Shown: positions 4,259-39,121, counted from the first letter of the stretch. The stretch: DNA of 64,000 nucleotides from Chryseobacterium gleum (GCA_945871895.1 CAMBXP010000003.1:1160-65159); one strand, 5' to 3'. Notes: generated by a model not told the origin, from the sequence alone. A program made the numbers and translations.

Positions 4259-6745
4259 CTAAAGTTGATTCTCCCACTTGTTTTCACGTTGTAATTTCAT
4301 TTCTTTCAGTAAATTGGCTTTAGGTTGAAGCAGGAAGGTCCAGCTTTTGCGTTCGCCAAAAGGAACCCAGTTAAAAGATAAATTCCAGCAATGTAAATCG
4401 CGGTTGATGGCGAAGCTCGTAATGCTTAATTCCTTACTCTGAATATCATAACCAGTTGTGTATGTGAAACTCCATTTTGGCGTAAGGGTAATCGATCCGC
4501 TAATATCTACAGTTTGTGTTATGGTGCTGGTGAGTCCGGGTTTGTTATAAGTGAGGATATAATTAAGGTTGATGTTTGTGGGGATTTTAATAAACACTGC
4601 TTTTGTTTTTGCTTTGCTTGATGCCAACCTCAGAGTAGCAGAAGTATACGCATAGGTTAAGCGTCCCCAATCACCACCACCATTATGGTTCCAAGTATTT
4701 TGCAATATTCCTTTGTTATCAATAGCATAAGGAGAAACTGTTGCGCGGCAATTTATATTAAGTAAATTACTAAACATATCTGTAGTAGCTTGTGTCGAAA
4801 AATCACTCCAGTTAAATTTCGGAGCGGCCATATTGTATCCACTGCTAATGTTGAAAGATTTAATCAATCGAATTTTCTCGGTGGTGTCTTTACCATTTAC
4901 TTTTCTTTTGATTTTCATGTCCACAGAGTTGTCGATGCTAAAACTCAGCTGAGAAACATTGGTAGAACTTGGTCCGCTATATAAATTTCGTTCAAATGCA
5001 TTGTATGCAATTCTGTTGTTGTTGGCATCGGTGTAGTATTTGGTTACTCTATCGGCATTGATAATGTCTTCTACCACTTTTAAGTTTTGTGTTAAGTTGA
5101 TTCCCGATTTAATGGTGTGTTTGATGTATTTAATACGCGTTTTATTTTTGAGTGCACTAATCGGTCGGTAGGTTAAAAACAATTGGTTGTTGAAGCCAAA
5201 TCCTCCAATTTGTAAACTAGTAGCATTGGTCATTTGATTTACCTTGCTTACCTCAAGCTTTCCGTTTTCGTAATTTTTCACAATGTAATCTAGGTAAGTA
5301 TAGTTGGTAGCTGATAGGGAAGGCAAAGAAATATTTAAGAATTTAAATGGTTTAATACTTCCCGAGTAAGAAATAGAACCAGTGTTTTTCAATCCGTTTT
5401 TCATGGTGATTGAATCTAAGCTTTCAAAAAGATTGGTGTCTTTAGCTGCAATGGTGTTGGCTAAATCGGCTCCCCATTGTAAATTGATGTTTTTAAATAT
5501 TCCTTTTTTTACGGTATAAGGCGACATTCTTAGGGTGAAGGTAGGTGCCGAAATATTGACATCGCGACTAATCATATTTTGTGAATGAGATGCTGTGGTA
5601 TTTAAAGTTAATCGCTTACTTAATTTTTGAGAATAGTTGATAGATGAGGTGTAGGTGTTGTTGGTAATGCTATTAATGTCGTTGTTGGCTACCAGCGAGT
5701 TTTGAAAGGCGCTACTTGTACCAAAGTTAACATTGGCACTAAAAGATGAACCCGGTCTTGCCGATGCATCTTGCTGATGAGTCCATGAAAACCTAAAATC
5801 TTTGGTTTTTCTAAAGTTGTACAAATCACGATCGCCACTAACGGTGTTGGTATAATTGAAATTTAGTGAACCTGAATATTTGTAGCGTCTTTTATAGTTA
5901 ATATTGTTTTTGATGGCCCAGCTTCCTTGTGTGAATATATCTGAGTAGATGGTGTAATTGATGTTGTCGCTCATGGCCCAGTGAAATCCTAAACCAGTTA
6001 AATACAAGCCTTGCGATTTGTTTTCGCCGTAAGCGGGAATAATAATACCGCTGGCTCTTTTGGGGTTGTTAGGGAAAATTCCAAAAGGCAGAATCAGTGG
6101 AGTAGGCACATCATTTACAACAAGATTTACAGCGCCAGTTACAATCTTATCATTTTGAATCATTTTGATTTTTCGTGTGCTGAAGTGGAAGTGTGGATGC
6201 TCGGCATTGCAAGTAGTATATTTTGCACCCCCAACGTAAATGACATTGTTTGGCAATCGTTTAATGGTTTCGCCATGTATGTAGCTTTCTCCTTCTTGGG
6301 TTATTACTTCAACCACTCTTCCTTTTTGTGTTTTAAAATTGTAGCTTATTTCGCTTGAATTGAATTTTTGGTCTTTGTCGGTAAACGTTGCTTTATCATA
6401 GCAATAACCGTTCGTGTCTTTTCTTCCAAAGGCATGAAGTTCATTTTTCTCCATGTCAATCCATATGTAATCGGCCTGAAGTTTTATGGTGCCATATTCC
6501 ACTTCTGCTTTTCCATAGAGGTGAACGATTTTAGTTTCATTATCTACATCTAGCGAGTCTTCGGCAGAATATTTGATTTCTTGGTTGAGTCCCGACTTTG
6601 ATTTTTTCAAATCATCATTGTTAATAGCGAGGGTGTCGCCATTGATTGAATCCTTTGCTGTGATTGGTGTTGTAGCGCTTAAATCATTGTTAGTGACAGT
6701 GCATAGGGCCAAAGTAATTAATATGTATAAAAGAGTGTTTCGCAA
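4259..6745 (-). CDS. lptD: LptD-like outer-membrane LPS-assembly protein (OstA N-terminal domain plus large beta-barrel region)
   Basis: Signal peptide. OstA-like N-domain (YGKAEVEYGTIKLQADYIWIDMEKNELHAFG), then an ~650-aa beta-rich region with alternating aromatic residues. Confidence 0.6.
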   Translation of the reverse strand: MRNTLLYILITLALCTVTNNDLSATTPITAKDSINGDTLAINNDDLKKSKSGLNQEIKYSAEDSLDVDNETKIVHLYGKAEVEYGTIKLQADYIWIDMEKNELHAFGRKDTNGYCYDKATFTDKDQKFNSSEISYNFKTQKGRVVEVITQEGESYIHGETIKRLPNNVIYVGGAKYTTCNAEHPHFHFSTRKIKMIQNDKIVTGAVNLVVNDVPTPLILPFGIFPNNPKRASGIIIPAYGENKSQGLYLTGLGFHWAMSDNINYTIYSDIFTQGSWAIKNNINYKRRYKYSGSLNFNYTNTVSGDRDLYNFRKTKDFRFSWTHQQDASARPGSSFSANVNFGTSSAFQNSLVANNDINSITNNTYTSSINYSQKLSKRLTLNTTASHSQNMISRDVNISAPTFTLRMSPYTVKKGIFKNINLQWGADLANTIAAKDTNLFESLDSITMKNGLKNTGSISYSGSIKPFKFLNISLPSLSATNYTYLDYIVKNYENGKLEVSKVNQMTNATSLQIGGFGFNNQLFLTYRPISALKNKTRIKYIKHTIKSGINLTQNLKVVEDIINADRVTKYYTDANNNRIAYNAFERNLYSGPSSTNVSQLSFSIDNSVDMKIKRKVNGKDTTEKIRLIKSFNISSGYNMAAPKFNWSDFSTQATTDMFSNLLNINCRATVSPYAIDNKGILQNTWNHNGGGDWGRLTYAYTSATLRLASSKAKTKAVFIKIPTNINLNYILTYNKPGLTSTITQTVDISGSITLTPKWSFTYTTGYDIQSKELSITSFAINRDLHCWNLSFNWVPFGERKSWTFLLQPKANLLKEMKLQRENKWENQL

Positions 6746-6806
6746 GCTTACAATACTATTTTTGCTCCAAACGTTAAATTATTAAAGCGCTCAAAGCTAA
6801 GGAAAA

Positions 6807-8081
6807 ATGAAGTTTTTACGGAAATATAGACGGTCTATTTTCCTTGGGTGGCTTTCACTCATTGTCGTTTTTGTTTTTTTAACAAGCGGTAAAAAAACGC
6901 ATTTGCGCCAAGGCACTGGTTATAAGCTTAAAGTTGTGGTGATTGATGCTGGGCATGGCGGTACTGACCCAGGTTGTTTGGGGGAAGTGATTAATGAGAA
7001 AGCAGTTGCCTTGGGTATCGCCATGAAGTTGGGTAAATACATCAATGAGAATTTTCCAGATGTAAAAGTGGTGTACACGAGAAATACCGACGTTTTTATT
7101 CCTTTAACCGATAGAGCGCGAATTGCCAACGAGGCCAAAGCCGATTTGTTTATCAGTGTGCACGCCAATGCCAATCCGAAACGCGAACCTTACGGTACCG
7201 AGACCTATGTAATGGGGGTTGGCACCGATATGGATAGAAATACAGATATCGTTAAGACCCGAGAGAATTCGGTAATTTTCTTAGAGAAAGATTACAAAAA
7301 GAATTACGATGGTATGGATCCCAACGACCCGGCATCGGAAATTATAGCCAACATGATTCAAAAGGAAAAACTCGACCAAAGTTTGTATTTGGCGAGTCGC
7401 GTTCAAACACAATTTGAAACCAGAATGAAGTTGTTAAACAGAGGAGTTAAACAGCGAGTGCTTTATGTGATGTACCGCACGGTGATGCCGTCTATTTTGG
7501 TGGAAACCGGATTTTTAACCAACAAAGAAGATGAGAAATATTTGTCTTCCGAAAAGGGACAAGCCTATGTTGCGTCATGTATTTTCAGGGCATTTAGAAT
7601 GTACAAAATGCAAGCAGAAGGAAGAACATCGGCCGAAATTAAGGCAGCTGAAGAAGCCGATTTCGCTAAGCAAAGTGCCGAGATTGGTAAAATGCCAGAG
7701 ACCTTAAGTGTTTTAATTGGAAAGAAAACAAGCGAAAAAGATAGTGCCAAAACTCCAGTAGATGTTGTTGAAACGCTAAAAGAAGTGAAGAAAATTCCCG
7801 AAGACACTTCCGATTTGATTTTTAAGGTACAACTCACTTCCTCAAGTAAGAAAATTGAATTAACTTCACCCAAGTTTAAAGGCCTAGATAATGTGCAGGT
7901 GTATGAGGGCGACGGCAGCTTTAAATATACTGCTGGAAAATGTAAATCGATGGCAGAGGCTATTAAATTGCAGAAAAAGGCTATGGAGATAGGGTTTAAA
8001 GATGCGTTTGTTGTAGCGTTTTATCGCGGACAACGCGTATCGATGAAGAGGGTGAATGAGATAATGGCCGAGAAAAAATAG
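6807..8081 (+). CDS. N-acetylmuramoyl-L-alanine amidase (AmiC family) with a C-terminal SPOR-like domain
   Basis: Amidase_3 motifs (VVIDAGHGGTDPG, SVHANA, ETGFLTN) and a C-terminal repeat region typical of septal-binding SPOR domains. Confidence 0.85.
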   Translation: MKFLRKYRRSIFLGWLSLIVVFVFLTSGKKTHLRQGTGYKLKVVVIDAGHGGTDPGCLGEVINEKAVALGIAMKLGKYINENFPDVKVVYTRNTDVFIPLTDRARIANEAKADLFISVHANANPKREPYGTETYVMGVGTDMDRNTDIVKTRENSVIFLEKDYKKNYDGMDPNDPASEIIANMIQKEKLDQSLYLASRVQTQFETRMKLLNRGVKQRVLYVMYRTVMPSILVETGFLTNKEDEKYLSSEKGQAYVASCIFRAFRMYKMQAEGRTSAEIKAAEEADFAKQSAEIGKMPETLSVLIGKKTSEKDSAKTPVDVVETLKEVKKIPEDTSDLIFKVQLTSSSKKIELTSPKFKGLDNVQVYEGDGSFKYTAGKCKSMAEAIKLQKKAMEIGFKDAFVVAFYRGQRVSMKRVNEIMAEKK

Positions 8082-8108
8082 TATATTGTTGATGTAAAAA
8101 AATAAGAA

Positions 8109-9158
8109 GTGGGTAAACAATTAAAAATTTGGACTTTAGTAATTCTTGCGGTGGGCTTAGCTCTTTGGGGTGCAAGATTTCTAAAAGGTTATAATTTCTT
8201 TGCCGATGAGGTGGTGTATCATGCACGATATGATAATGTGCAAGGTTTAACCGAGTCGAATCCAATTTATTTTCAAGGTTTGAAAGTGGGACAAGTTAGC
8301 GAGGTGGTAATAGTGTTCGATAGTTTGTTGCAAAGAAATGTTATTGATGTGTCATTGTTGGTTACCAATAAGTCGGTTTCTATGAGCGACAGCACCATTG
8401 CGCGAATTGGTGGCGATGGTTTGTTGGGGTCTAGATGTATTAGATTGGAGAAAGTAGGTAAGGGTAAGTTGCTTCCTGCAGGAGGATTCTTGATGTCGGA
8501 AATTGAAAAAGACCTTCAAGCGCAAATCAATGAGACCTTACTTCCTTTGAAAAAAAGTACCGAAAAATTAATTGAAAGTGCCGAGCAACTCATTACTTCC
8601 TTTAAAGTGGTGATGAACGATGAAACCAAAGAGAATTTGATGGAGGCTTTTAGAACTATTCCTCAAACGATTAAAAATTTAGAACACGCTACCTTTACCA
8701 TAGATACTACTGTTCAAGTGTCTGGAGAAAAAATGAAAGCCATCTTTGCACACGTGGAATCTATTACCAAAAACCTACAGCAAAACAATGGTAAAATTAC
8801 TTCTATCATGAGTAATTTAGATGAAATTACAGATTCATTGGCCAAATCGAATTTTCAAGAAACCATTTTAACGGTAACCAGCACTCTAAAAAAGACAGAT
8901 ACTATTTTGGGTAAAATCAATAGAGGTGAAGGTACCATGGGCCAATTGATCAATAATGATAGATTGTACAACGAGCTTACTTTGGCTTCGGTACGTTTAA
9001 ATATGTTGATTAACGACTTGCAAGAAAATCCACAAAAATACATTAACTTATCTTTGGTGGATTTTAGAGGTCACCATAAACAGGCTGAAAATGATAGCGT
9101 TTTTGTGATTGAGCAAATGAGAAGAGATTCGGTTATCATTAAAAAGTACGGTAAATAA
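8109..9158 (+). CDS. mlaD: MlaD/MCE-family protein
   Basis: GTG start. N-terminal transmembrane helix, MCE domain (YHARYDNVQGLTESNPIYFQGLKVGQV) and a coiled-coil C-terminus. Confidence 0.7.
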   Translation: MGKQLKIWTLVILAVGLALWGARFLKGYNFFADEVVYHARYDNVQGLTESNPIYFQGLKVGQVSEVVIVFDSLLQRNVIDVSLLVTNKSVSMSDSTIARIGGDGLLGSRCIRLEKVGKGKLLPAGGFLMSEIEKDLQAQINETLLPLKKSTEKLIESAEQLITSFKVVMNDETKENLMEAFRTIPQTIKNLEHATFTIDTTVQVSGEKMKAIFAHVESITKNLQQNNGKITSIMSNLDEITDSLAKSNFQETILTVTSTLKKTDTILGKINRGEGTMGQLINNDRLYNELTLASVRLNMLINDLQENPQKYINLSLVDFRGHHKQAENDSVFVIEQMRRDSVIIKKYGK

Positions 9159-9182
9159 TTGTCTCACTAAAACAATTAAAGC

Positions 9183-10514
9183 ATGCAATATATTCCAAAC
9201 ATTGTATTCGCATTATTACTCATAGTTACTTCGCTTTTCTTCGCAAAACAAGTAGGTAAAATCAGAAGAAATATTTTGTTGGGGCGCGAAGAAGATAGAA
9301 GCGATAATTCTGCTCTGCGCTGGAAAACAATGTTTTTGGTGGCTATTGGCCAATCGAAAATGATGGCTAATCCTCTCGTTTCTTTTTTGCATATTTTGGT
9401 TTATGTTGGTTTCATTATCATCAACATTGAAGTGATTGAAATCGTTGTTGATGGGTTGTTTGGCACGCATCGCTTTCTGTCTTTTATGGGGGCTTTCTAC
9501 GATTTCTTAATAGGTTCTTTTGAGTACTTGGCTTTAGGAGTTATTGCTGCATGTGTTGTGTTTTTAGTGCGCAGAAATGTACTCAAAGTGAAACGTTTTT
9601 GGAGCAAAGAAATGACTTCTTGGCCGCGCAGCGATGCCAATATTATATTAATTGCCGAGATATTATTGATGAGTGCTTTCTTGATTATGAATGCTAGCGA
9701 TAGCATTTTACAAGATATGAAGTATGAGCATTTTGATACGAAATTGGGTTCGTTTCCTATATCCTCACTGTTAACTCCTTTACTTGATGGATTTACGCCA
9801 AAAGCTTTGTTTATGATTGAACGTTTTTGCTGGTGGTTTCACATCACTGGTATTTTCGCTTTCATATGCTATTTGCCACTTTCTAAACATTTTCACATCA
9901 TCTTGGCTTTTCCAAATGTGTACTATTCTAATCTTAAACCAAAGGGACAATTCACCAATATTACAGAGGTTACCAATGAGGTTCGTTTAATGATGGATCC
10001 ATCGGCTACTCCTCCCCCCCCGTCAGCTGACGGGCCTAAAACTTTTGGCGCAAAAGACATTCATGATTTAAGTTGGAAGAGCATTATGGATGGTTACACC
10101 TGCACCGAATGCGGAAGATGTTCTACTGCTTGTCCGGCCAACCAAACAGGTAAACTGCTTTCTCCTCGCAAAATCATGATGGATGTTCGCGACAGAGCAG
10201 AGGAGGTGGGAAAAAATATTGATGCCAAAGGTGCCGATTTTAACGATGGCAAATCATTGGTTTACGATTATGTTACGCCAGAAGAATTGTGGGCTTGTAC
10301 CTCTTGTAATGCTTGTACAGAGGCTTGTCCGGTGAACAACGATCCACTTGCAGTAATTATGGAGTTGCGTAGGTTCTTAGTGATGGAGAAATCAGAAGCG
10401 CCACAGGAGTTGAACAACGTGTTTACCAACATAGAGAACAATGGAGCTCCATGGCAATTCGCTATGGCCGATAGAATGAAATGGGCAGCAGAAACAGATA
10501 CTAGAAACGTTTAG
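9183..10514 (+). CDS. membrane-anchored (Fe-S)-binding oxidoreductase subunit (heme-b-like transmembrane domain plus 2x[4Fe-4S] ferredoxin)
   Basis: About 6 transmembrane helices with conserved His (FHITGIFAFICYLPLSKHFHII) and two CxxCxxCxxxCP motifs (CTECGRCSTACP, CTSCNACTEACP). It resembles the N-terminal half of HdrD/GlcF/DsrK fused to a DsrM/HdrE-like anchor. Confidence 0.7.
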   Translation: MQYIPNIVFALLLIVTSLFFAKQVGKIRRNILLGREEDRSDNSALRWKTMFLVAIGQSKMMANPLVSFLHILVYVGFIIINIEVIEIVVDGLFGTHRFLSFMGAFYDFLIGSFEYLALGVIAACVVFLVRRNVLKVKRFWSKEMTSWPRSDANIILIAEILLMSAFLIMNASDSILQDMKYEHFDTKLGSFPISSLLTPLLDGFTPKALFMIERFCWWFHITGIFAFICYLPLSKHFHIILAFPNVYYSNLKPKGQFTNITEVTNEVRLMMDPSATPPPPSADGPKTFGAKDIHDLSWKSIMDGYTCTECGRCSTACPANQTGKLLSPRKIMMDVRDRAEEVGKNIDAKGADFNDGKSLVYDYVTPEELWACTSCNACTEACPVNNDPLAVIMELRRFLVMEKSEAPQELNNVFTNIENNGAPWQFAMADRMKWAAETDTRNV

Positions 10515-10517
10515 ATT

Positions 10518-11306
10518 ATGGCTGAATTAGTAATACCGTCGATGGCCGAAATGGCTGCAAAAGGCGAAACGCCCGATGTATTGTTTTGGGTTGGTTGTGC
10601 AGGTAGTTTCGATGACAGAGCGAAAAAAATTACGCGTTCCATGGCGAAATTGTTGAACAAAGCCAACATAAAATTTGCTGTTTTAGGTACTGAAGAATCG
10701 TGTACTGGCGATCCTGCTAAGCGCGCTGGAAACGAGTTTTTGTTTCAAATGCAGGCTTTCAACAACATTCAAGTGTTGAATGCTTATCACGTAAAAAAGA
10801 TTGTTACTACTTGTCCGCATTGCTTTAACACCCTTAAAAATGAATATCCCGAATTGGGCGGAAACTATGAATTAATGCACCATACACAATTGTTGCAAGA
10901 GTTGTTGAACGATGGTAAATTAACAATTGAGGGCGGTAAGTTCAAAGGCAAAAGAATTACTTTTCACGACCCTTGTTACTTGGGAAGAGCAAACGATATT
11001 TATGAAGCACCAAGAGATTTAATTGAAAAATTAGATTCTGAATTTGTGGAGATGAAACGTTCGAAAGCAAAAGGTTTGTGCTGTGGAGCAGGGGGTGCGC
11101 AAATGTTTAAAGAATCCGAGAAAGGAAATAAAGATGTGAATATTGAGAGAACCGAAGATGCTTTAGAAACCTCACCCGATATTATCGCTACGGGCTGTCC
11201 GTTTTGCAACACCATGCTTACCGACGGTGTGAAAAATAAAGAAAAAGAAGGTAGCATTAAAGTTTTCGATTTAGCCGAATTGATAGCGCAAGCGAGTGAT
11301 TTATAA
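10518..11306 (+). CDS. (Fe-S)-binding protein with two cysteine-rich CCG domains (C-terminal half of HdrD/GlcF/LutA-like)
   Basis: CCG motifs (CPHCFNTL, CYLGR, CCGAGG, GCPFCNTM). It starts 3 bp after the in-frame TAG of the previous gene. Confidence 0.7.
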   Translation: MAELVIPSMAEMAAKGETPDVLFWVGCAGSFDDRAKKITRSMAKLLNKANIKFAVLGTEESCTGDPAKRAGNEFLFQMQAFNNIQVLNAYHVKKIVTTCPHCFNTLKNEYPELGGNYELMHHTQLLQELLNDGKLTIEGGKFKGKRITFHDPCYLGRANDIYEAPRDLIEKLDSEFVEMKRSKAKGLCCGAGGAQMFKESEKGNKDVNIERTEDALETSPDIIATGCPFCNTMLTDGVKNKEKEGSIKVFDLAELIAQASDL

Positions 11307-11336
11307 ATTAGTTCAAGGTTCAATGTTTAAAGTTCA

Positions 11337-11834
11337 ATGTTAGCAATGGTTCAAACAATACTTCATAATAATCTTCCAGCCACATCAAGAGTTTGGATAT
11401 ACCAAGCCAACAGAATTCTTACTGATGCTGAAGTGAGTAAAGCGAACGATTTTATTCAAGCTTTTTTGCCACAGTGGAAATCGCATGGCAAAGATTTAGC
11501 AGCATCGATTGAAGTGCTTCACCATCTTTTTATCGTTGTTACAGCCGATGAAGGCGTAGAAGCTCCATCGGGCTGTTCTATAGATTCATCTGTGAAGTTG
11601 GTTAAAGAAATCGCCGCAGCTTTAAATGTTGATTTTTTCGATCGATTGGTGATTCCATATCTTCAAGACAACAAGATCTATTTAACCAAGATGTTTCAAT
11701 TTCAAGACAAGTTGAAAGCAGGCGAATTAACTCAGGATACTATCGTTTTCAATAATTTGGTGGATAGTAAAGCGAAACTAGAAAGCACTTGGATTGTTCC
11801 TGTTAAAGAGAGCTGGCATAAGCAATTGTTGTAA
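11337..11834 (+). CDS. conserved hypothetical protein (Bacteroidota-specific, ~165 aa)
   Basis: ORF with no recognisable catalytic motif. It is tightly linked downstream of the Fe-S pair. Confidence 0.4.
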   Translation: MLAMVQTILHNNLPATSRVWIYQANRILTDAEVSKANDFIQAFLPQWKSHGKDLAASIEVLHHLFIVVTADEGVEAPSGCSIDSSVKLVKEIAAALNVDFFDRLVIPYLQDNKIYLTKMFQFQDKLKAGELTQDTIVFNNLVDSKAKLESTWIVPVKESWHKQLL

Positions 11835-11844
11835 AATCTATGTC

Positions 11845-11940
11845 TTCGCAGAGTCAGCTAGAATCTGACTTAAAAAGATTAGGTTCCTTTAAAGAATCTG
11901 ATTGTTCTTCTGTTTTAAGACAGATTCTATCTGTCTCTAC
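11845..11940. repeat. Hairpin repeat (family A, degenerate copy) at a convergent gene junction; likely bidirectional terminator
   Basis: Arms cagagtcagctagaatctgactt ... aagacagattctatctgtctctac. It shares the core AGAATCTGACTT / CAGATTCTATCTG with 57853-57950. Confidence 0.6.
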
Positions 11941-11952
11941 CCGAAGATAAAA

Positions 11953-14175
11953 TCACTTTTTCTTTTTCCCTCCACCCAACTGTAAAAAGTTGTAATACAA
12001 GTTTGATTTCAATCTATCGGGAGTGTCTTTCCCCTTAATTTGGTAAGACTTGTTAAAAATAACTTTCCCCTTTTCAATATCGGCTACCATCATGTAATGG
12101 TAAGTGTAATAATCGGGTGTTGCAGCATCGTAAAAGAAGTAAGGCGCAAGCACTGGCAAGTACACACAATACATTATTAAATTCACTGGGTCGGCCATGG
12201 CATCGGGTTCGGTAAGTGCAAATACGCTGTTCCATCCCAGGTATTTTGTTTTGTGTTTCTCAAGCAGCATGTCAACCAATTGATAATCTGCAGAAAGAAC
12301 ACTGTCTAAATCCTTATGCTTATAGAGTTCGTCGATAAAGTTGTTGAGTCGGGCAATGTCGTTGAACAAACTAACCTGCTTAGTGTTTAGGAATTTAGAA
12401 TCGAGTAAGTCTACATCTAATTTTGCTTTTTTAGCGATTTCTTTAATTGATTTACTATATTCTTTTCTTGCGTTTTCCGACTCCAATGCATTGAATTTTT
12501 CTGTAAAAAAAGTGTTGTTTATTTTGAAATAGGAAGGGTCAACCATTACTATTTTATTTAGATACATTGGCTTAATGCTGGGTGGGTTGTAGGCGTATAA
12601 ATCCTGAGAAATATAAACTGTAGATGGAATATTGCTAGGTAATTCTTTATTTGATTGGGCAGTGTTAAATGCCGATTTGAATTCTTCTTTTTTAAATAGT
12701 TCACTGAAAGCATAGCGCAGTTCTATTTTGCTGGTGTCGGCCGGTCGCTTGCCATAACCGTAGTAATGATTTACTTTCATTTTACCAATTGTGGCAGGTT
12801 TCACAACATTTAAAGTACTTGTATCTCTAACTGGTGATATCTCGCTAAAGGAATTGGAAACTGGATAGATTTTCATCATTTCATTCATTAGCTCAATTGC
12901 CTTTTTCTTTAAGTCTTTTCTGCTTGGGAAAGCAAAATAAGTATTCCATAAATATTGAATAGCCAGCACATCTAATTCTTCTTTTTTTAGCACAGAAAAA
13001 AGCAAATGCAATTGTTGCGATTCCCCTTCAATGTTTTCGTGATGCGCATTCACATACTGCAATGCATTTTTGTTGCTGTACTTAGCTAAAAAATACAGGC
13101 TATTGGCAATATTGCTTAGTAGGAATTCATTGTTTGGATATTTTTGCAAAAGCAGATAACTATTGTAAATAGCTGCTGCATATTGTCTGTCGTATAGATA
13201 CAACGAGCTCAACTCAAAGCGCGCAATATCTCTGCAGTAATGAAATTGATTTTTTGGAAGTATGAAACTATCTATTTCGCCATTCATGATTTTATTGATG
13301 GCATTGTTTCTTAAAATAACATTGGGTTGCGTATAATTTTCATCAGCTTCAGTAATCGGATTTACCTCCGTAAAGAAGTAAGTATCGGGAATCTTAAAAT
13401 TGGTTGAATTAAAAAAGCGAATATCAAATGCTTCTTGAGCTACTGGATGATTGCCGGAATTAAAAATTTTTAAAACTCCATTGATGGCATTGCTTGAATA
13501 GTTGGTGCTAAACAATACAGTCGCCAAAGAATCGGCTTGTTCCTCTTGCGCGTCGCTAAAATTACTCGATTTTAAAAGATTGTCTTCAATGAGTTTTAGG
13601 TTGTAAGCGCCATTGTTGCTAATGTCGTTATCGAGGTATAGTTTGGCTTGGTGTTTTAATTTGTAATGTGCTATTTCACGCGCCAGAATAAATGCTAGCT
13701 GTGCCTCATTATTGATGCGTGCCAGTAATCCACTACTAATTAACACAACACCTTCTTGATTGCTAAGTGTGCTTACAAAAGCCGACTTAACCACAAAGAA
13801 ATTTAATTTTGCGAATGTTTCTTCTTCGTTTTTAAGTAATTGCTTGGCCACTAATTTTATGTATCCGCTAAGTGTATCGTTAAACACAACATTGCCGCTT
13901 AGCAGCAACTCCGACGTAACAAAACTACTTTCTATTATCGAACGTTGTTTTGCCTTTTTTTCAAGCCAATTATCGTTTTTAGAAATATTTTTCTTTTCGG
14001 CTTCTTGAATTCTTTTCTCGATAGTTTTGGTAATTACTTTGGGTATTACACCCGTGCTGTAAATACCTTGGTAATTTGCTAAATCAATATGTTGGGCGAA
14101 AAGAGTAGGCGATAAAAATAGGAATGCTATTAGAAAGGAAATTATTTTTGCTGATATTTTAGGCGTATTTTGCAT
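11953..14175 (-). CDS. BepA-like M48 metallopeptidase-domain protein with TPR-like C-terminal extension (zinc motif reads RExxH)
   Basis: INNEAQLAFILAREIAHYKLKH aligns with the BepA/YfgC motif INNEAELASVMAHEISHVTQRH. The signal peptide begins at MQNTPK..., so the likely start is 14175, not 14232. The long C-terminus is helical. Confidence 0.55.
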   Translation of the reverse strand: MQNTPKISAKIISFLIAFLFLSPTLFAQHIDLANYQGIYSTGVIPKVITKTIEKRIQEAEKKNISKNDNWLEKKAKQRSIIESSFVTSELLLSGNVVFNDTLSGYIKLVAKQLLKNEEETFAKLNFFVVKSAFVSTLSNQEGVVLISSGLLARINNEAQLAFILAREIAHYKLKHQAKLYLDNDISNNGAYNLKLIEDNLLKSSNFSDAQEEQADSLATVLFSTNYSSNAINGVLKIFNSGNHPVAQEAFDIRFFNSTNFKIPDTYFFTEVNPITEADENYTQPNVILRNNAINKIMNGEIDSFILPKNQFHYCRDIARFELSSLYLYDRQYAAAIYNSYLLLQKYPNNEFLLSNIANSLYFLAKYSNKNALQYVNAHHENIEGESQQLHLLFSVLKKEELDVLAIQYLWNTYFAFPSRKDLKKKAIELMNEMMKIYPVSNSFSEISPVRDTSTLNVVKPATIGKMKVNHYYGYGKRPADTSKIELRYAFSELFKKEEFKSAFNTAQSNKELPSNIPSTVYISQDLYAYNPPSIKPMYLNKIVMVDPSYFKINNTFFTEKFNALESENARKEYSKSIKEIAKKAKLDVDLLDSKFLNTKQVSLFNDIARLNNFIDELYKHKDLDSVLSADYQLVDMLLEKHKTKYLGWNSVFALTEPDAMADPVNLIMYCVYLPVLAPYFFYDAATPDYYTYHYMMVADIEKGKVIFNKSYQIKGKDTPDRLKSNLYYNFLQLGGGKKKK

Positions 14176-14207
14176 TACTTTTACCAAGTTAACCAAAAGA
14201 ACTAAAA

Positions 14208-14894
14208 GTGCAATACAAAAGAAAAATACCAATTGGGTTTATTATCTTGTTTTTATGTTTCGCCATTTCTAATGCTGGGGCACAAAGAATTGTGCCTGGT
14301 TACCTAGGTAAAAAAAATATTGTTTTTGGAAGTGGCAAAATTCATTTACTAACGGCCTACAATTATGTATTGGGTGCTGATGTCGTTCAGCCTGCCCTCT
14401 GCAAGAGGTCTTTGACATGGGATGTAGGTGTGCAGCGAGTGATTGGTCGCTCGGGAATGATGGGCGCTTCTTTCTCGTATTTTACTAATGATGTTTTTAG
14501 CGCAGTAAGCGATATTTATGAGGCGTCACATTACTCGGGCTATGATTTAGGCGTTCAGTTTCGCTCCTATTATTACCGTTCAAAAGGAAGTATCGCTCCT
14601 GTTGGAAGACATTTCAGATACAATCTTCTGTTGAATGCTTACACATTGAATACCGATGCTAATAATGCGCTAATTGGCAAAACTACAGAATTAGGATTTG
14701 GTTTGGGAGCCGGAAATTCGAGGGTTTTGTATGATAAGTTATGGGTGGATTACGGTTGGGAGTTTAATGTCCTTATCAATGTTTACGATCAGCAAGATGT
14801 GGTAAGAGGTTTTGACTATACTGCCCAGGCGCGTGCAAACATACGAAGAATGGCGCTTATTACATTTAAGATGAATTTTGGTTATTTGTATTGA
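14208..14894 (+). CDS. hypothetical secreted or outer-membrane protein
   Basis: Signal peptide (FIILFLCFAISNAGAQ), beta-rich sequence and a C-terminal aromatic residue. Confidence 0.4.
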   Translation: MQYKRKIPIGFIILFLCFAISNAGAQRIVPGYLGKKNIVFGSGKIHLLTAYNYVLGADVVQPALCKRSLTWDVGVQRVIGRSGMMGASFSYFTNDVFSAVSDIYEASHYSGYDLGVQFRSYYYRSKGSIAPVGRHFRYNLLLNAYTLNTDANNALIGKTTELGFGLGAGNSRVLYDKLWVDYGWEFNVLINVYDQQDVVRGFDYTAQARANIRRMALITFKMNFGYLY

Positions 14895-14895
14895 T

Positions 14896-15714
14896 TTACA
14901 AAATAGACTGACGCACACGCACCAATTTTTCCAATAAACCTTCCAATAAATCCAGTTGCAACATATTTGCTCCATCTGATTTCGCTTCACTAGGTTTAGG
15001 ATGCGTTTCAATGAAGAGTCCGTCTACACCAACCGCTATACCTGCTTTAGCAATGGTTTCAATTAATTGGGGTTTGCCTCCAGTTACGCCACTGTTTTGA
15101 TTGGGTTGTTGCAAGGAATGTGTTATATCAAGCACTACAGGGTGACCGAATTCTTGCATTTCGGGAATATTACGATAGTCAACTATCAAATCTTGATAGC
15201 CAAAAGAATTTCCTCTTTCTGTAAACCACACATGTGGATTTCCGCTATCAACAACCTTTTGGGCAGCAAATTTCATAGCGCCCGAGTTAACGAACTGACC
15301 TTTTTTAATGTTCACCACCTTGCCAGTGTTAGCAGCAGCAATCAATAAATCGGTTTGTCGGCAAAGAAAGGCTGGTATTTGCAATACATCAACATATTCA
15401 GCGGCAATAGCAGCATCATGAGATTCGTGAATATCGGTGACGGTAGGAACGCCAAACGTCTCAGATACTTTTTTCAATATTTTAAGTGCTTTTTCGTCAC
15501 CAATGCCTGTAAAAGAATCAACTCGAGAGCGGTTTGCTTTTTTAAATGAACCTTTGAAGATAAAGGGTATTTCTAGTTTGTTTGTAATTTTTACAATACG
15601 TTCAGCTATTTGTAAAGCAATGTCTTCTCCTTCAATGGCGCAGGGACCTGCAATTAAAAAGAAGTTGCCAGATGAAGTGTGTTTTATTTTGGGTAGGTAG
15701 CTGATGTTGACCAT
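14896..15714 (-). CDS. kdsA: 3-deoxy-8-phosphooctulonate synthase (KDO8P synthase)
   Basis: FFLIAGPCAIEGE, KGSFKKANRSRVDSFTGIG and KVVNIKKGQF motifs. Starting at the internal Met (MVNISY...) removes the 34-bp overlap with the downstream GT4 gene; the track ORF extends to 15768. Confidence 0.9.
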   Translation of the reverse strand: MVNISYLPKIKHTSSGNFFLIAGPCAIEGEDIALQIAERIVKITNKLEIPFIFKGSFKKANRSRVDSFTGIGDEKALKILKKVSETFGVPTVTDIHESHDAAIAAEYVDVLQIPAFLCRQTDLLIAAANTGKVVNIKKGQFVNSGAMKFAAQKVVDSGNPHVWFTERGNSFGYQDLIVDYRNIPEMQEFGHPVVLDITHSLQQPNQNSGVTGGKPQLIETIAKAGIAVGVDGLFIETHPKPSEAKSDGANMLQLDLLEGLLEKLVRVRQSIL

Positions 15715-15734
15715 GGTGTTGATAAATGTGTTTT

Positions 15735-16877
15735 TTACTTTTTTTCTTGTAGAACAATTTTGTAGCATTTTTCAGTCTCTTCTACATTTTTTTTCCAACT
15801 AAAGTATTGCAATCTTTTTTGTCCTTCAGATATTTTGTTGGCGATGAATTCTTTGTTTTCTAGCTTGGATAGGGCTTCAATAAAAGAATCTTTGTTTTTG
15901 TTTTCAAAGTATATTCCAGCTTCTCCAGCAATTTCGGGGAAACAAGAACATTGGGTGAGAATGATGGGACAATTGTTTTTTAGCGCCTCAACAATTGGAA
16001 GTCCGAAACCTTCATATTCAGATGGGAAAAGTAATGCTTTTGCCTCTGCATATAATATTGCTAATTCTTCATCGCTAACAAATTTTCGCTGCACAAAATC
16101 AATGATGCCTGCCTTTTTCATTTTTTCCATTTCCTTGGGCGTGTATGGAGATCCGCTGGTGTATAATAGAAGGTCTTTATTTAAAACAGCAGATAATGCA
16201 TCAATCAAAAAATCGAAGTTTTTGTATCCTTCTCTACTTCCAACATATAAAAGATAATTGGTTTTATTTGTTTGGTTGTTAATTTCTTGATGTTCGATAT
16301 CACAGCCTAAATATATGCGGGTTACAATTTTTTCATTTATTTCTGGAAAAAAGTGCAACAAATCCTTCTTGGTATTTGAAGAAACGGTGATGATGTGATG
16401 GGCTTTTCGAATAAGAGCTGCCTTGTTTTTAGCCATTTCTTTGTATCCGCGTTGATTAGGATACAATTCTGGAATCATATCATGTATAGTAATTACCAAT
16501 TTTGTAGAACCCAAATGATCAAGATAGGCAGGGTTGTAAAATGAGGGATGGAATATGTTGTATTTTCCTGATTTTAGCTCGTGAATAACTCTTTTTTCGT
16601 TGCTCCTACGTAGGCTATTTTTTATTCTTCCAAAACTTGATAAATTAAGCGAATTAACAAGGTTATTGGTTTTAGGAAAGTTAAATAAAGCTTGAATTTC
16701 TTTGTTTTTAATGAAATTAGAACCTAGATGTGCTGAAAATTCGTTGTTTTTATTTACGCCTTTTAATACCTCCGTATAGTAACGTGGTATACCGCCAAAA
16801 GCAATTATGTCGAAGATTTCTGTGTCGTATAGAATTTTTGCTTTCGTCATTTTACTCAAAGAGGGATTAAAATACAA
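15735..16877 (-). CDS. glycosyltransferase family 4 (GT-B, GT1-like)
   Basis: EX7E-type C-terminal motif (PSEYEGFGLPIVEALKNNCPIILT). Confidence 0.85.
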   Translation of the reverse strand: MYFNPSLSKMTKAKILYDTEIFDIIAFGGIPRYYTEVLKGVNKNNEFSAHLGSNFIKNKEIQALFNFPKTNNLVNSLNLSSFGRIKNSLRRSNEKRVIHELKSGKYNIFHPSFYNPAYLDHLGSTKLVITIHDMIPELYPNQRGYKEMAKNKAALIRKAHHIITVSSNTKKDLLHFFPEINEKIVTRIYLGCDIEHQEINNQTNKTNYLLYVGSREGYKNFDFLIDALSAVLNKDLLLYTSGSPYTPKEMEKMKKAGIIDFVQRKFVSDEELAILYAEAKALLFPSEYEGFGLPIVEALKNNCPIILTQCSCFPEIAGEAGIYFENKNKDSFIEALSKLENKEFIANKISEGQKRLQYFSWKKNVEETEKCYKIVLQEKK

Positions 16878-16885
16878 CTTGTTTT

Positions 16886-17686
16886 TTATTTTTTTCCAAT
16901 TTCTTTTTGAATATAGGAGAAGTCCTTTTGTAGTAAGCTTTTTTTGTTTTTAAAATTTCTGCCTAAAATTTTGTCTTTATAATGGTGTATTAGAGAATGT
17001 ATTTTCACTGGGTTAAAAGTGAATTTTTTAGGAGTAAGCAAATGCAGGTTGTAGTTGTTGGTGTATAGATTGCAATTGTATTTTTTTGCTAAAAATTGCA
17101 GTGATTTTAGCGAGTACAAAGAGATGTGTTGTCCGGTTTCTGGGGCAAAGTACCACCAATCAGAAATTTTAGTGATGTTATTGTTGGGTTGTAATTCTGT
17201 TGTGAAAAGCACAGATGAAGATCGCTTAAACATTTTGTCGATCTCTGTTAATGGATTATCTAAATGTTCAAAAACTTCAAAAGTAGTAAGCAATTCAAAT
17301 TGTTTTTTTTCATCGAAAGAGGAAGTGTCGAAATAGTTGGCAAAAATATTCTGACAATACGGGTCTTCTACATAGAATTTAAAACCTTTGTCTCTCATTA
17401 TTCTCACAAATAAGCCATACCCGCCACCGTAGTCGATGAAATCACCTTTATCATTAAAACTAGATTGCACAATCGATGAAACGACTTCTGATAAAGAGAT
17501 ATTCCTTGTGACATAACCAATATCAAGTGAAGTAATTGCGTTACTGTAGGCTTCATTTAACCAATAAGGTTTTTCTGTTTGTATAAATTCACACTGAGTA
17601 CATTTGTGATATTTCACTTGGTGTTTATTCATTACTAAAGTAGTGAATAATAGCTTTGTTTCGCTGTTACAGATATTGCAATTCAT
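16886..17686 (-). CDS. class I SAM-dependent methyltransferase with N-terminal zinc ribbon
   Basis: CxxC...CxxC (MNCNICNSE...CTQCEF) and a methyltransferase motif I-like FIDYGGGYGLF. Confidence 0.65.
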   Translation of the reverse strand: MNCNICNSETKLLFTTLVMNKHQVKYHKCTQCEFIQTEKPYWLNEAYSNAITSLDIGYVTRNISLSEVVSSIVQSSFNDKGDFIDYGGGYGLFVRIMRDKGFKFYVEDPYCQNIFANYFDTSSFDEKKQFELLTTFEVFEHLDNPLTEIDKMFKRSSSVLFTTELQPNNNITKISDWWYFAPETGQHISLYSLKSLQFLAKKYNCNLYTNNYNLHLLTPKKFTFNPVKIHSLIHHYKDKILGRNFKNKKSLLQKDFSYIQKEIGKK

Positions 17687-17785
17687 AGCATCAAACTTAA
17701 GTGATTCTCCTCATTTTATCAATTTTAGCCGCAAAGTTTTATAAATTAGTATAAGTAAGTGCTATGTTTATGTTAATTTCGAAAA

Positions 17786-18757
17786 ATGCATGAATCTTTA
17801 AAAATATCTATCATAACCCCGTCGTTCAATCAAGGACATTTTATAGAGGAGACAATACAGTCTGTTGTTCAGCAGAATTATGCCAATATAGAATATATTC
17901 TAATGGATGGCGGTAGCAAAGACAATACGGTTGATGTAATTAAGAGATACGACTCTCAAATTACTTACTGGGAAAGCAAAAAAGACAAAGGTCAGTCGGA
18001 TGCCATAAATAAAGGTTTGGCGAGAGCAACTGGTGATATTGTGGCCTGGTTGAATAGTGATGATATGTACACTGAAAATGCTCTTAAAAGAGTAGCTGCT
18101 ATTTTTACAAAATATCCAGAAGTAGATGTGGTATATGGAAACGTTTGGCAATGTTATCCCGATAAAACAGAAAAACATATCAACGTTAAATTCAATCCCA
18201 AGCATTTCCTTGCAGGTGTAAATATGCATCAACCTTCTGTTTTTTGGCGAAGAAGAGTGCATGATGAAGTGGGTTTTATTGATGAAAGTTTATATTATAC
18301 TATGGACTATGATTTGTGGTTAAGGTTGTTTTACAACTATAAATCCTACAAAACAGAGACTATCTTAAGTAAGTTTCGTTGTCATGAAGACGCAAAGACA
18401 AGTAAAAATCCTAAGGGGATTTATATGGATTATAGGAAGTGTATATCAAGATTTTTTCGTTCGGCAGGTTTCGATAAACATATTTCGGTTTTGCGCGCAC
18501 TTAAAATTTACGATTCCCATGAAACCACAAGCTATACTATTAAGCAAGAATTTACAGAAACAGCAAAGCAGCAAATTATTGATGAATATATTTTTAACTG
18601 CGGAGTGCAAGAGTATTCCTTTGGAAATGTATCGTCGGCAAATAAAATATTGAATTATTGTCTTACATCTTCTTATAAAAAACAAGCCCGCCGTTTCATG
18701 CTGAAAAATAATTTAGGAGTAAGAAAAATGCTTAATTTATTTAAGAAAGAAGCTTAG
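17786..18757 (+). CDS. glycosyltransferase family 2
   Basis: ISIITPSFNQGHFIEETIQSV...ILMDGGSKDNT...WLNSDDMY (DxD). Confidence 0.85.
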   Translation: MHESLKISIITPSFNQGHFIEETIQSVVQQNYANIEYILMDGGSKDNTVDVIKRYDSQITYWESKKDKGQSDAINKGLARATGDIVAWLNSDDMYTENALKRVAAIFTKYPEVDVVYGNVWQCYPDKTEKHINVKFNPKHFLAGVNMHQPSVFWRRRVHDEVGFIDESLYYTMDYDLWLRLFYNYKSYKTETILSKFRCHEDAKTSKNPKGIYMDYRKCISRFFRSAGFDKHISVLRALKIYDSHETTSYTIKQEFTETAKQQIIDEYIFNCGVQEYSFGNVSSANKILNYCLTSSYKKQARRFMLKNNLGVRKMLNLFKKEA

Positions 18758-18786
18758 TTTACTTGCTTTTTTCGGTGAAATGTTTG

Positions 18787-20091
18787 TGTGAACTTGCAAC
18801 AAAAAATGGGACAAAAAGTTAAGCGACATTTTTAAGATTCATTAATTGTTCAAATTCTACGATTGTTAAATTACCTAAAGCCGAGTGTCGTCGGTTTCTG
18901 TTATACCAAGTTTCAATCCACTCAAAAATTGATATTGCAGCTTGTTCTCTGTCCATGTAACGATTTCTATACACCAACTCAGTTTTAATAGTTTTAAAGA
19001 AGCTTTCGGCCACAGCATTATCCCAATACCCGAAAACTTTGTTTTCTCCTCTTAATATCAAATCTTTTCTGCTCATGCTTCTTTCAACGCACTTGTAGCT
19101 TGCTAGCAACTTAGCAAAAACGTGACAAGCATACTGAACGCCTCTATCGGAATGAAAAATCAAAGCGGAGGATGGTGGCCGATTTTTCACAGCCATTCTC
19201 CAAGCCGCAATGCAGGTATTTTCCGCACGTAAATTACTGCTAAGCACCCAACCCACTGCTTTGCGATCGCACAGATCTGGGATGATAGTTAAATAAAGCC
19301 ACCCTTTACCAGTTCTTATGTAAGTAATATCTGCTACCCACACTTGTCCGCTGTTTTCGGCGCTGAAGTTTCTATCCAACTTGTTTTCTACTGCAGGATA
19401 TTTGTGTTTTGAATTGGTGGTAACCACAAACTTTTTAGAGCGAACAGCCTTGATGCCGTTCTCTTTTTCATCAATCTAGCTACCCGAGGTCTTGATACAT
19501 CAAGCCCTCGTTTTCTTAGCTCTTCAGTCATTCTCGGACTACCATAACTAGCCTTGCACTCCTGATGTATCCGTTGAATTTCGGCTACCAGCATACGGTT
19601 CTCACCATCGCGTTTTGAAGGAAGATAATTTCTCATTCTATAATATCCGCTTTTACTCACTTTTAAAACTTTACACATTTTCCCAACTGGAAATTCCCGC
19701 TGATGGTCTTTTATAAACTGGAAGATTTCCTGTCGCTCACGGAGAAGATGCTCACGGCCTTTTTTAATATGTCGCGCTCCATCTTTACATCGGCCAGCTC
19801 TCTTTTTAGTCTGGCCAATTCTTTTTGCTCCTCTGTAAGTTGTTTTTTACCATTGCCGCTAAATGCTAGCGAGGATTTAAATTTTGCTCATGTCGCCAGC
19901 GGTAGATGAATTTTAGCAATATGCCTAACTCTCGTGCAATCTCTTGAACACTGCCTCGAACTTCGCTTAATTCAACTGCTTTTTGTTTGAATTCTTTGCT
20001 GTAAATTTTTCTTTCTTTTTTCATTTTATTAAGGTATTGATTTGTTTCAATTTACCCTTAACTTAGTATCCAGTCAAATGTAGCAAGTCCA
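18787..20091 (-). mobile_element. IS3-family insertion sequence, degenerate (frameshifted orfA and orfB)
   Basis: Imperfect terminal inverted repeats: TGTGAACTTGCAACAAAAAATGGG (18787-18810) against the reverse complement of 20070-20093 (CATGGACTTGCTACATTTGACTGG). The length of about 1.3 kb fits IS3. Confidence 0.6.
18819..20024 (-). pseudogene. IS3-family transposase OrfAB, disrupted by two frameshifts beyond the programmed one
   Basis: OrfA MKKERKIYSKEFKQKAVELSE... hits a stop after EQNLNPR, then resumes in another frame ([48 protein letters not shown]). The slippery A_AAA_AAG is retained at 19758-19764. The OrfB DDE core (HSDRGVQY...) is broken by a frameshift near 19440-19470 (LMKK|ENGIKAVRSKKFVVTTNSK). 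Confidence 0.8.
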
Positions 20092-37195: not shown

Positions 37196-37269
37196 GCCGG
37201 TGTAGCTCAGTTGGCCAGAGCAGCTGATTTGTAATCAGCTGGTCGGGGGTTCGAATCCCTCCACCGGCT
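37196..37269 (+). tRNA. tRNA-Thr (anticodon TGT)
   Basis: Manual cloverleaf: acceptor GCCGGTG/CACCGGC, anticodon loop TTTGTAA, T-loop TTCGAAT. No encoded CCA. Confidence 0.88.
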
Positions 37270-37380
37270 CGCAGAGACGGGGAGGGAAAGACAAAGTCAA
37301 TCCCTCCACCGGCTCTTTAAAGCAGTTGGTGGGAGTGAGATTGGAGAGTTTGAAAGGTTCTTTAAAATATTTAGAAAGTT

Positions 37381-37463
37381 GGGGAGATACTCAAGTGGTT
37401 AACGAGGACAGACTGTAAATCTGTTGGTGTACGCCTTCACAGGTTCGAATCCTGTTCTCCCCA
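37381..37463 (+). tRNA. tRNA-Tyr (anticodon GTA)
   Basis: Acceptor GGGGAGA/TCTCCCC, anticodon loop CTGTAAA, long variable arm, 83 nt. Confidence 0.88.
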
Positions 37464-37537
37464 CAAAACATTAGTTTGAGTATCTTATTGATAGCATTTT
37501 TACCAAAAGCTGTTAATCTCAAACAAAAGATAAAAAA

Positions 37538-37610
37538 GCGGGAGTAGCTCAGTTGGTAGAGCATCAGCCTTCCAAGCTGAGGGTCGCGAGTCCGAGTCTC
37601 GTCTCCCGCT
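37538..37610 (+). tRNA. tRNA-Gly (anticodon TCC)
   Basis: Acceptor GCGGGAG/CTCCCGC, anticodon loop CTTCCAA. The T-arm is gcgag-tccgagt-ctcgt, with an unusual C at position 54. Confidence 0.8.
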
Positions 37611-37636
37611 CTTTTTTATTTAAGGCTTATTTATAA

Positions 37637-37708
<72 letters not shown>

Positions 37709-37780
37709 CTACATATTGCGCATTTAAGAAGTTTTTTATTGTAGGTTTAATATATTAATTAATTAAAATTTAAGAAAGTC

Positions 37781-38968
37781 ATGGCTAAAGAAAGTTTCAA
37801 CCGATCAAAGCCACACGTTAACATCGGAACAATTGGTCACGTTGACCACGGCAAAACAACATTAACTGCCGCTATTACAAAAGTGCTATCAGACTTAGGT
37901 CTTTGCGCAGCGAGAAATTTTGACTCTATTGATAACGCTCCAGAAGAAAAGGAGAGAGGTATCACTATCAATACTTCTCACGTTGAGTATGAAACTGCAA
38001 CCAGACACTACGCACACGTAGATTGTCCTGGTCACGCGGATTACGTTAAAAACATGGTTACTGGTGCCGCTCAAATGGACGGTGCTATCTTGGTAGTTGC
38101 TGCTACTGACGGACCAATGCCACAAACTCGTGAGCACATCTTATTAGCTCGTCAAGTAGGTGTACCTAAAATCGTTGTATTCATGAACAAAGTGGATATG
38201 GTTGATGATCCTGAGTTATTAGAGTTAGTAGAGATCGAAATCAGAGAATTATTGTCATTCTATAGCTTCGAAGGTGATACTATTTCAGTTATTCAAGGTT
38301 CTGCGCTTGGTGCATTGAACGGTGAGCCGAAATGGGTTGATACTGTTAAAGCTTTGATGGATGCTGTAGATAAAGATATACCAGTTCCTCCGCGTGAAGT
38401 TGACAAACCATTTTTGATGCCAGTTGAAGACGTGTTCTCAATTACTGGTCGTGGTACTGTTGCTACTGGTAGAATTGAAACAGGTGTTATCAATGTTGGT
38501 GACGAGGTTGAAATCACAGGTTTAACTGAGACTAAACAGATGTCAATCATTACAGGTGTTGAGATGTTCAGAAAATTATTGGACAGAGGTCAAGCTGGTG
38601 ATAACGTTGGTTTACTTTTAAGAGGTATCGATAAAGAAGGAATCAAAAGAGGAATGGTAATGGCTAAGCCAGGATCAATCAAACCTCATAAAAAATTCAA
38701 AGCTGAGGTTTACGTATTGAAGAAAGAAGAAGGTGGTCGTCACACTCCTTTCCACAATAAATACAGACCACAGTTCTACTTAAGAACTACCGACATGACA
38801 GGTGAAATCACTTTACCTGAAGGTCGTGAAATGGTTATGCCTGGTGACAACGTTACTATCACTGTAGATTTGATTATGCCAGTTGCCTTGAACAAAGGTT
38901 TACGTTTCGCAATCAGAGAGGGTGGAAGAACTGTTGGTGCTGGTCAAGTACTAGAGATCTTAGACTAA
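37781..38968 (+). CDS. tuf: elongation factor Tu
   Basis: [22 protein letters not shown] and the canonical length of 395 aa. Confidence 0.98.
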
Positions 38969-38995
38969 TTTAATTGACCTTACTCAAGGTACTGA

Positions 38996-39024
38996 AGCTA
39001 TCCCGATTTTCGGGATAGCTTTTA
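38996..39024 (+). terminator. hairpin terminator after tuf
   Basis: AGCTATCCCGA-TTTT-CGGGATAGCT followed by TTTTAG. Confidence 0.65.
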
Positions 39025-39048
39025 GTGTCCTTACAAAGTTGGGCCTTT

Positions 39049-39121
39049 ACGGGAGTAGCTCAATTGGCAGAGCGTAGGTCTCCAAAACCTGAGGTTGTGA
39101 GTTCGATTCTCCCCTCCCGTG
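39049..39121 (+). tRNA. tRNA-Trp (anticodon CCA)
   Basis: Acceptor ACGGGAG/CTCCCGT, anticodon loop CTCCAAA, T-loop TTCGATT. Conserved tuf-tRNA-Trp-secE position. Confidence 0.85.

Follow-up and report, generated by a model that had tools for sequence, protein, structure and literature searches.

A BepA-like M48 protein with RExxH in place of HExxH, a probable pseudo-protease of a small Flavobacteriales clade

The window (by which we mean the whole 64-kb stretch of DNA analysed here) contains the gene of a secreted M48-like protein in which arginine occupies the place of the first zinc-ligand histidine of the HExxH motif. The same replacement is found in every member of the clade to which the protein belongs, and in all but the basal member a second histidine of the metal site, that of the HPx4R 'active-site plug' motif, is missing as well. 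We regard the protein as probably a lineage-specific pseudo-protease which has lost zinc-dependent cleavage and has been kept for non-proteolytic binding, holding or scaffolding. The features concerned are collected in Table 1; residue numbering throughout refers to the 740-aa product beginning MQNT.

Table 1. Features of the M48-like gene and its surroundings, in window coordinates
Feature	Position	Strand	Remarks
740-aa secreted M48-like protein gene	11953-14175	minus	ATG 14173-14175, TGA 11953-11955
Predicted signal peptide	14095-14175	minus	residues 1-27 (MQNTPKISAKIISFLIAFLFLSPTLFA); without lipobox Cys
M48 peptidase-like domain	13276-13932	minus	~residues 82-300
REIAH replacing HExxH	13666-13680	minus	residues 166-170; codons CGT GAA ATA GCA CAT
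EEQAD (ExxAD motif)	13531-13545	minus	residues 211-215; E211 opposite BepA E201, the third zinc ligand
QPNVILR replacing HPx4R	13309-13329	minus	residues 283-289
TPR-like helical repeat domain	12856-13263	minus	~residues 305-440; helical repeats 308-436 in the AlphaFold2 model
C-terminal alpha/beta domain	11971-12573	minus	~residues 535-735
165-aa ORF	11337-11834	plus	no Pfam or NCBIfam match; abuts the 3' end of the M48-like gene
228-aa secreted protein, predicted 8-stranded outer-membrane beta-barrel	14208-14894	plus	divergent from the M48-like gene
KdsA-type KDO-8-P synthase	14896-15768	minus	
LptD_2-family gene	4259-6745	minus	
Five-tRNA gene cluster	37196-39121	plus	Rfam RF00005, 61-73 bits

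Arginine at the first zinc-ligand position

R166 (CGT, 13678-13680) stands at the position of the first zinc ligand, H136 of BepA, while the catalytic glutamate (E167) and the second zinc ligand (H170) are retained. Reverse-complementing 13666-13680 confirmed both the change from HExxH to RExxH and the CGT codon that the preliminary description had read there. By sequence and fold the protein is homologous to peptidase family M48 (PF01435), from which it departs in its HExxH motif. The Pfam PF01435 match has an E-value of 4.8e-8 and lies above the gathering score, the PDB chains of BepA match at E ~4e-4 with HEISH aligned opposite REIAH, and comparison of a family profile with E. coli BepA by hhalign gives a probability of 98.2% (E 4.4e-14). 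These matches contradict the possibility that the region is not homologous to the M48 active-site helix. The earlier alignment with the active-site helix of BepA is correct, but the BepA string quoted for it differs from the exact E. coli sequence.

A search of 5.8 billion proteins gave, among the matches listed, at least 120 full-length homologues of ~700-800 aa. The eight closest clusters carry RExxH without exception (8/8, P0001-P0008, from 100% down to 55% identity) and the other homologues among the matches listed carry HExxH (112/112). Arginine is conserved across the clade, and the orthologues are therefore not uniformly His at this position. Searched with a profile, a set of 1.84 billion representatives yielded 2146 proteins at E<=1e-30, and 136 extra sequences were taken, so that the family set examined comprises 256 proteins (120 plus the 136 extra representatives). 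Outside the clade, HExxH and HPx4R were both intact in 248/248 of the family proteins examined; inside it, RExxH was present in 8/8 and an intact HPx4R in 0/8. Neighbour-joining groups the eight RExxH clusters in a single clade whose basal branch is P0008, and a second protein search seeded with P0008 brought up no additional RExxH clade members.

Since a single base separates CGT from CAT, it had been suggested that the site might carry a point error, in which case the true codon would be CAT and the product an ordinary active M48 peptidase. The distribution of the arginine refutes this explanation. The window and locus L002 have the codon CGT, L001 and L004 have CGC, and L003 has AGA, which is two steps away from a His codon (CAY); the nearest HExxH loci have CAT or CAC. 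Because these three codons differ among orthologues, arginine at the first-ligand position has been kept through synonymous change. Each of ten full-length copies from the window's own 90% cluster (10/10, 97.8-100% identity; from NCBI, JGI, ENA and Logan) reads REIAH and TQP, and the exact window protein occurs on two other contigs, where the arginine is again encoded by CGT although two other bases of the gene are not those of the window. With arginine in eight clusters, recurrence in independent assemblies, and a second invariant histidine gone from the same clade, a base-call or assembly error at the codon is for all practical purposes excluded.

Loss of the plug histidine and constraint on the domains

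Positions invariant in the HExxH proteins (n=112) were checked column by column against the RExxH clade. Full conservation of His (100% of the 112 HExxH sequences) was seen in two columns, namely the first His of HExxH and the His of the downstream S/T-H-P-x4-R motif. The HPx4R plug motif is described as common to the whole of PF01435 (PMC7950410), and in the family profile alignment STHPnikkRr lies opposite STHPLTSERI of PDB 3C37, whose H208 corresponds to BepA H246, the fourth zinc ligand and an autoinhibitory switch (bioRxiv 10.1101/2020.07.07.192476). In the window protein this position is occupied by Q283 (CAA, 13327-13329). Within the clade the plug His is replaced by Gln in six clusters (that of the window and five others) and by Leu in P0007; it is kept in the basal P0008, where the Pro that follows it is replaced by Phe. 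Because P0008 has RExxH yet keeps the plug His, the H-to-R replacement came first and the plug His was lost afterwards. With QPNVILR the window protein thus departs from the M48 family at HPx4R too, while the third-ligand Glu is present as E211 (Asp in clade member P0007).

Other M48 positions of strong conservation have changed across the clade as well, Gln153 to Arg and Arg290 to Asn or Lys. The near-invariant Gly after ExxAD has become Ala throughout the clade, and residue 213, which is usually acidic, has changed from Glu to Gln or Ala (Gln in the window). Glu167, His170, Glu211 (with the exception of P0007), Asp215 and Arg289 are kept. We looked in the M48 core of the clade for a compensating metal ligand and found no newly conserved His, Cys, Asp or Glu there. 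The clade has gained R153 and R166, and the acidic residues at 213 and 247 are gone; the net charge of the segment from HExxH to ExxAD is about -0.9 in the RExxH clade versus -4.6 in the sister clade, a difference that falls inside the range covered by the family at large.

All members of the RExxH clade have an unbroken full-length ORF. Between close members the dN/dS ratio is 0.04-0.10 overall, 0.044-0.095 for the M48 domain and 0.041-0.057 for the C-terminal part, values which are informative for the three closest pairs only, dS being saturated in deeper pairs. The M48-like gene is under purifying selection and is not a pseudogene. Rates were further compared by the mean identity of the RExxH clade and of the HExxH sister clade to 85 outgroup sequences. 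For the M48 core this identity is 0.308 in the RExxH clade versus 0.395 in the sister clade, with each RExxH member lying below each sister member, whereas the corresponding values are 0.327 versus 0.306 for the TPR-like domain and 0.239 versus 0.227 for the C-terminal domain. It is the M48 core alone that has been partly freed from constraint, or reshaped, and not the rest of the protein.

Architecture, relatives and gene neighbourhood

The mechanical ORF of the M48-like gene starts from TTG and covers 11953-14232. The ATG start given in Table 1 matches the homologues, an identical database protein and the gene calls on independent contigs; the TTG would add 19 extra codons (14176-14232) and overlap the GTG start (14208) of the barrel gene. 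Given the ATG start, the two divergent genes lie only ~32 bp apart, which leaves no room for promoters free of overlap with coding sequence or with one another. The signal peptide, the cleavage site of which we infer, is the sole strongly hydrophobic stretch in the protein, and it is followed by N-terminal helices, the M48 domain, the TPR-like helices, a low-confidence linker and the C-terminal alpha/beta domain (AlphaFold2 model with pLDDT 85 and pTM 0.87). The fold of the C-terminal domain is that of the periplasmic/outer-membrane lipoproteins HpaA, PelC, PqiC and CsgG. The gene belongs to a large Bacteroidota family that combines M48, TPR-like and PelC-like domains. The G+C content of the window is 36.6%.

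The likeness to E. coli BepA (YfgC; PDB 6AIT, 6SAR) lies in the fold and in the domain order, an M48 domain followed by TPR-like helices, to which the window protein adds its C-terminal domain. In Foldseek the model matches best to full-length E. coli BepA, over ~405-445 columns (E 1.4e-6), and to the M48 peptidase 3C37. On the other hand, BepA has 487 aa against 740 aa in the window protein, with an identity of 12-17%; it is without the extra N-terminal helical segment, the long insertion ahead of the plug motif and the PelC/HpaA-like domain, and it has HExxH and HPx4R where the window protein has RExxH and QPx4R. The NCBIfam equivalog for BepA (NF052400) is matched with 35.4 bits against a cut-off of 570, and the match is confined to residues 95-179 (114-198 of the 759-aa ORF translation). 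Because of this score, its length and the extra domain, the window protein is not a BepA orthologue; the designation 'BepA-like' given in the preliminary description holds for fold and domain order and does not extend to orthology. Another M48 protein, Geobacter sulfurreducens Q74D82 (PDB 3C37), consists of a single domain and has all four metal ligands intact. The HExxH sister orthologues (P0009-P0013; loci L005-L008) have the same length, domain order and neighbourhood at 48-51% identity, but retain both HExxH and HPx4R as well as the acidic residue 213 and the Gly that follows ExxAD, and their M48 core is nearer to the rest of the family than that of the RExxH clade.

Related loci were found with a 12-sequence alignment. 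The gene order KdsA, 228-aa gene, M48-like gene, 165-aa gene, CCG-domain gene, Fe-S gene, MlaD and amidase is identical in the RExxH loci L001-L004 and the nearest HExxH loci L005-L008. Because of this common order the RExxH genes are positional orthologues of the HExxH genes and not spare paralogues; no second M48 gene was found within the window. The 165-aa ORF is syntenic in all related loci covering that side (L002-L008), with 61-93% identity. Envelope biogenesis is the theme of the region 4259-19427 of the window (LptD_2, Amidase_3, MlaD, an Fe-S/CCG oxidoreductase pair, KdsA, a GT4 glycosyltransferase and a methyltransferase), and the core of this neighbourhood is common to RExxH and HExxH Flavobacteriales loci. 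It had been pointed out that LptD is encoded nearby, and an LptD_2-family gene is indeed present, a neighbourhood hint of BepA-like action on LptD or BamA at the BAM complex; the functional link to LptD is not supported. The LptD/KdsA/MlaD neighbourhood was absent around three distant family members, which rules it out as a family-wide feature. Since the HExxH sister loci share the neighbourhood and these distant members are without it, it is uninformative about the Arg variant specifically and tells us little of the family.

The divergent 228-aa gene accompanies the M48-like gene more consistently than LptD_2 does, and adjoins it in 7/7 of the related loci covering that side (L001, L003-L008). 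The 228-aa protein gave no match in Pfam or NCBIfam. A PGYxGKK/R motif is found at its N-terminus, and its C-terminus is aromatic; its AlphaFold2 model contains 8 long strands (pLDDT 70), and the Foldseek matches are OmpA-TM, Ail, OmpX and OprF-N, with a probability of 1.0. In the distant locus L013 a homologue of the protein (9298-10155) is encoded directly downstream of the M48 gene, and in L014 (9188-10015) and L010 (6146-6967) the links to it are just weak or motif-level. The barrel may be a conserved partner of the M48 family, and we consider it a candidate for such a role.

Inactivation, retention and alternative readings

Inactive metallopeptidase homologues are already known as a kind. 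Replacement of a zinc-ligand His by Arg likewise occurs in carbonic-anhydrase-related protein VIII. The plant FtsHi pseudo-metallopeptidases, although different in family and organisms, are without a metal ligand and yet conserved as binders or scaffolds (PMC8197885). A review of pseudopeptidases (PMC11266112) makes no mention of M48, BepA, Ste24 or Oma1, and no precedent for an M48 or BepA-type pseudo-protease was found in the literature searched. The window protein has the attributes of a pseudo-peptidase, being a peptidase homologue without essential residues (H166R, H283Q) and under purifying selection.

BepA(H136R) is the standard protease-dead allele in E. coli (bioRxiv 10.1101/2020.07.07.192476). 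No degradation is seen when H136R is combined with H246A or with deletion of the plug, while the H136R protein still shows chaperone-like activity on LptD, described as 'reduced but significant' (bioRxiv 10.1101/2020.07.07.192476); in BepA without H246, protease activity rises (bioRxiv 10.1101/2020.07.07.192476; PMC7950410). It is from the H136R mutant that we infer the loss of zinc and activity in the window protein, which we consider most likely. A catalytically dead pseudo-protease, the other alternative raised in the preliminary description, fits all the findings, and the case for it is strengthened by the loss of the HPx4R histidine equivalent to BepA H246.

In the course of events that we propose, the first zinc-ligand His of HExxH would have been replaced by Arg in the ancestor of a small freshwater/groundwater Flavobacteriales clade, and after the split of the basal member the fourth-ligand His of the HPx4R plug would have been lost too (Gln in the window). 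With two of the four metal-site residues, both of them histidines, missing, the M48 domain would most likely hold no catalytic zinc and cut no peptides. The protein would have been retained for the non-proteolytic share of the ancestral job, that is binding, holding or scaffolding envelope proteins by means of the cleft remnants, the TPR-like domain and the C-terminal domain, and the adjacent small outer-membrane beta-barrel would possibly act together with it. That this share has been kept is suggested because purifying selection is strong and the TPR-like and C-terminal domains have held to the ancestral rate of evolution; by analogy with BepA, a chaperone or scaffold role for the 740-aa protein is most likely.

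Several other readings start from the same data. The loss of two invariant active-site histidines and the faster M48 core would also be expected of a decaying pseudogene whose function is gone and which is drifting toward loss. Yet the ORF remains full-length in every clade member, dN/dS is low with the M48 domain included, the TPR-like and C-terminal domains are conserved as in the HExxH relatives, and synteny is kept, which makes decay a very improbable explanation. An objection to an inactive site comes from E167, H170, E211 and R289, which would be unneeded in a pure relic and are still conserved; they leave room for altered chemistry, metal binding or a repurposed pocket. The protein could for example still be a hydrolase, either because a changed metal site functions with H170, E211 and a water or other ligand, or because the arginine has taken on a catalytic or oxyanion role. 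The conservation of these residues together with D215 would be compatible with such an enzyme, and loss of the autoinhibitory H246-equivalent could compensate by de-repressing it in its weakened state, as removal of H246 does raise the activity of BepA. However, BepA(H136R) is dead even with H246A or plug deletion, the clade's M48 core offers no conserved replacement ligand, and the presence of both histidines in 248/248 other family members shows that activity strictly depends on them. We therefore hold continued hydrolysis to be unlikely.

Alternatively, the cleft might have been repurposed as a metal-free, more basic site, one in which a peptide or some anionic envelope ligand is held and not cut. 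The gain of R153 and R166, the loss of the acidic residues 213 and 247, the resulting shift in segment charge and an M48 core that is accelerated while purifying selection persists would all agree with such a pocket; but the charge shift is modest and inside the wider family spread, and relaxed constraint by itself accounts for the acceleration, so that this reading is quite unlikely. If the protein is a pseudo-protease, as we prefer, the Arg-lined, metal-free cleft could serve permanently as a 'substrate trap' or holdase, or the protein as a structural subunit, together with the adjacent 8-stranded barrel; we put this forward tentatively, as a possible but doubtful extension.

If true, a holdase role would mean that the two halves of a BepA-type quality-control factor, chaperone and protease, have come apart naturally in a Bacteroidota family. 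BepA-type proteins unite a protease and a chaperone-like activity, and their separation has so far required engineered mutants such as H136R. Here, evolution has fixed the equivalent of H136R and afterwards removed the autoinhibitory His, and this in the only positional orthologue that represents an otherwise strictly conserved family. The RExxH clade and its HExxH sister clade, with the same synteny, form a natural comparison pair for the non-proteolytic function, which also bears on why proteolysis became dispensable. The RExxH protein would be useful as a natural separation-of-function allele, one confined to a small uncultured clade. In addition, the analysis brings to notice a large uncharacterised Bacteroidota family which may have a partner outer-membrane barrel.

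The 740-aa RExxH proteins P0257 and P0258, which belong to the window's 90% cluster, bear the JGI/IMG name 'predicted nucleic acid-binding protein', and relatives are called 'M48 family metalloprotease' at NCBI. For the RExxH clade both names are unlikely to be correct, and the metalloprotease label assigned by annotation pipelines is probably wrong for it. Lake and groundwater Flavobacteriales MAGs are the source of the related loci. In public records L001 (CAMDPJ010000147.1) is labelled Chryseobacterium gleum and L004 (CAYORT010000025.1) uncultured Chryseobacterium sp., while their closest relatives are labelled merely Flavobacteriales or Bacteroidetes MAGs (lakes, groundwater); the species-level label of the L001 and L004 MAGs looks doubtful.
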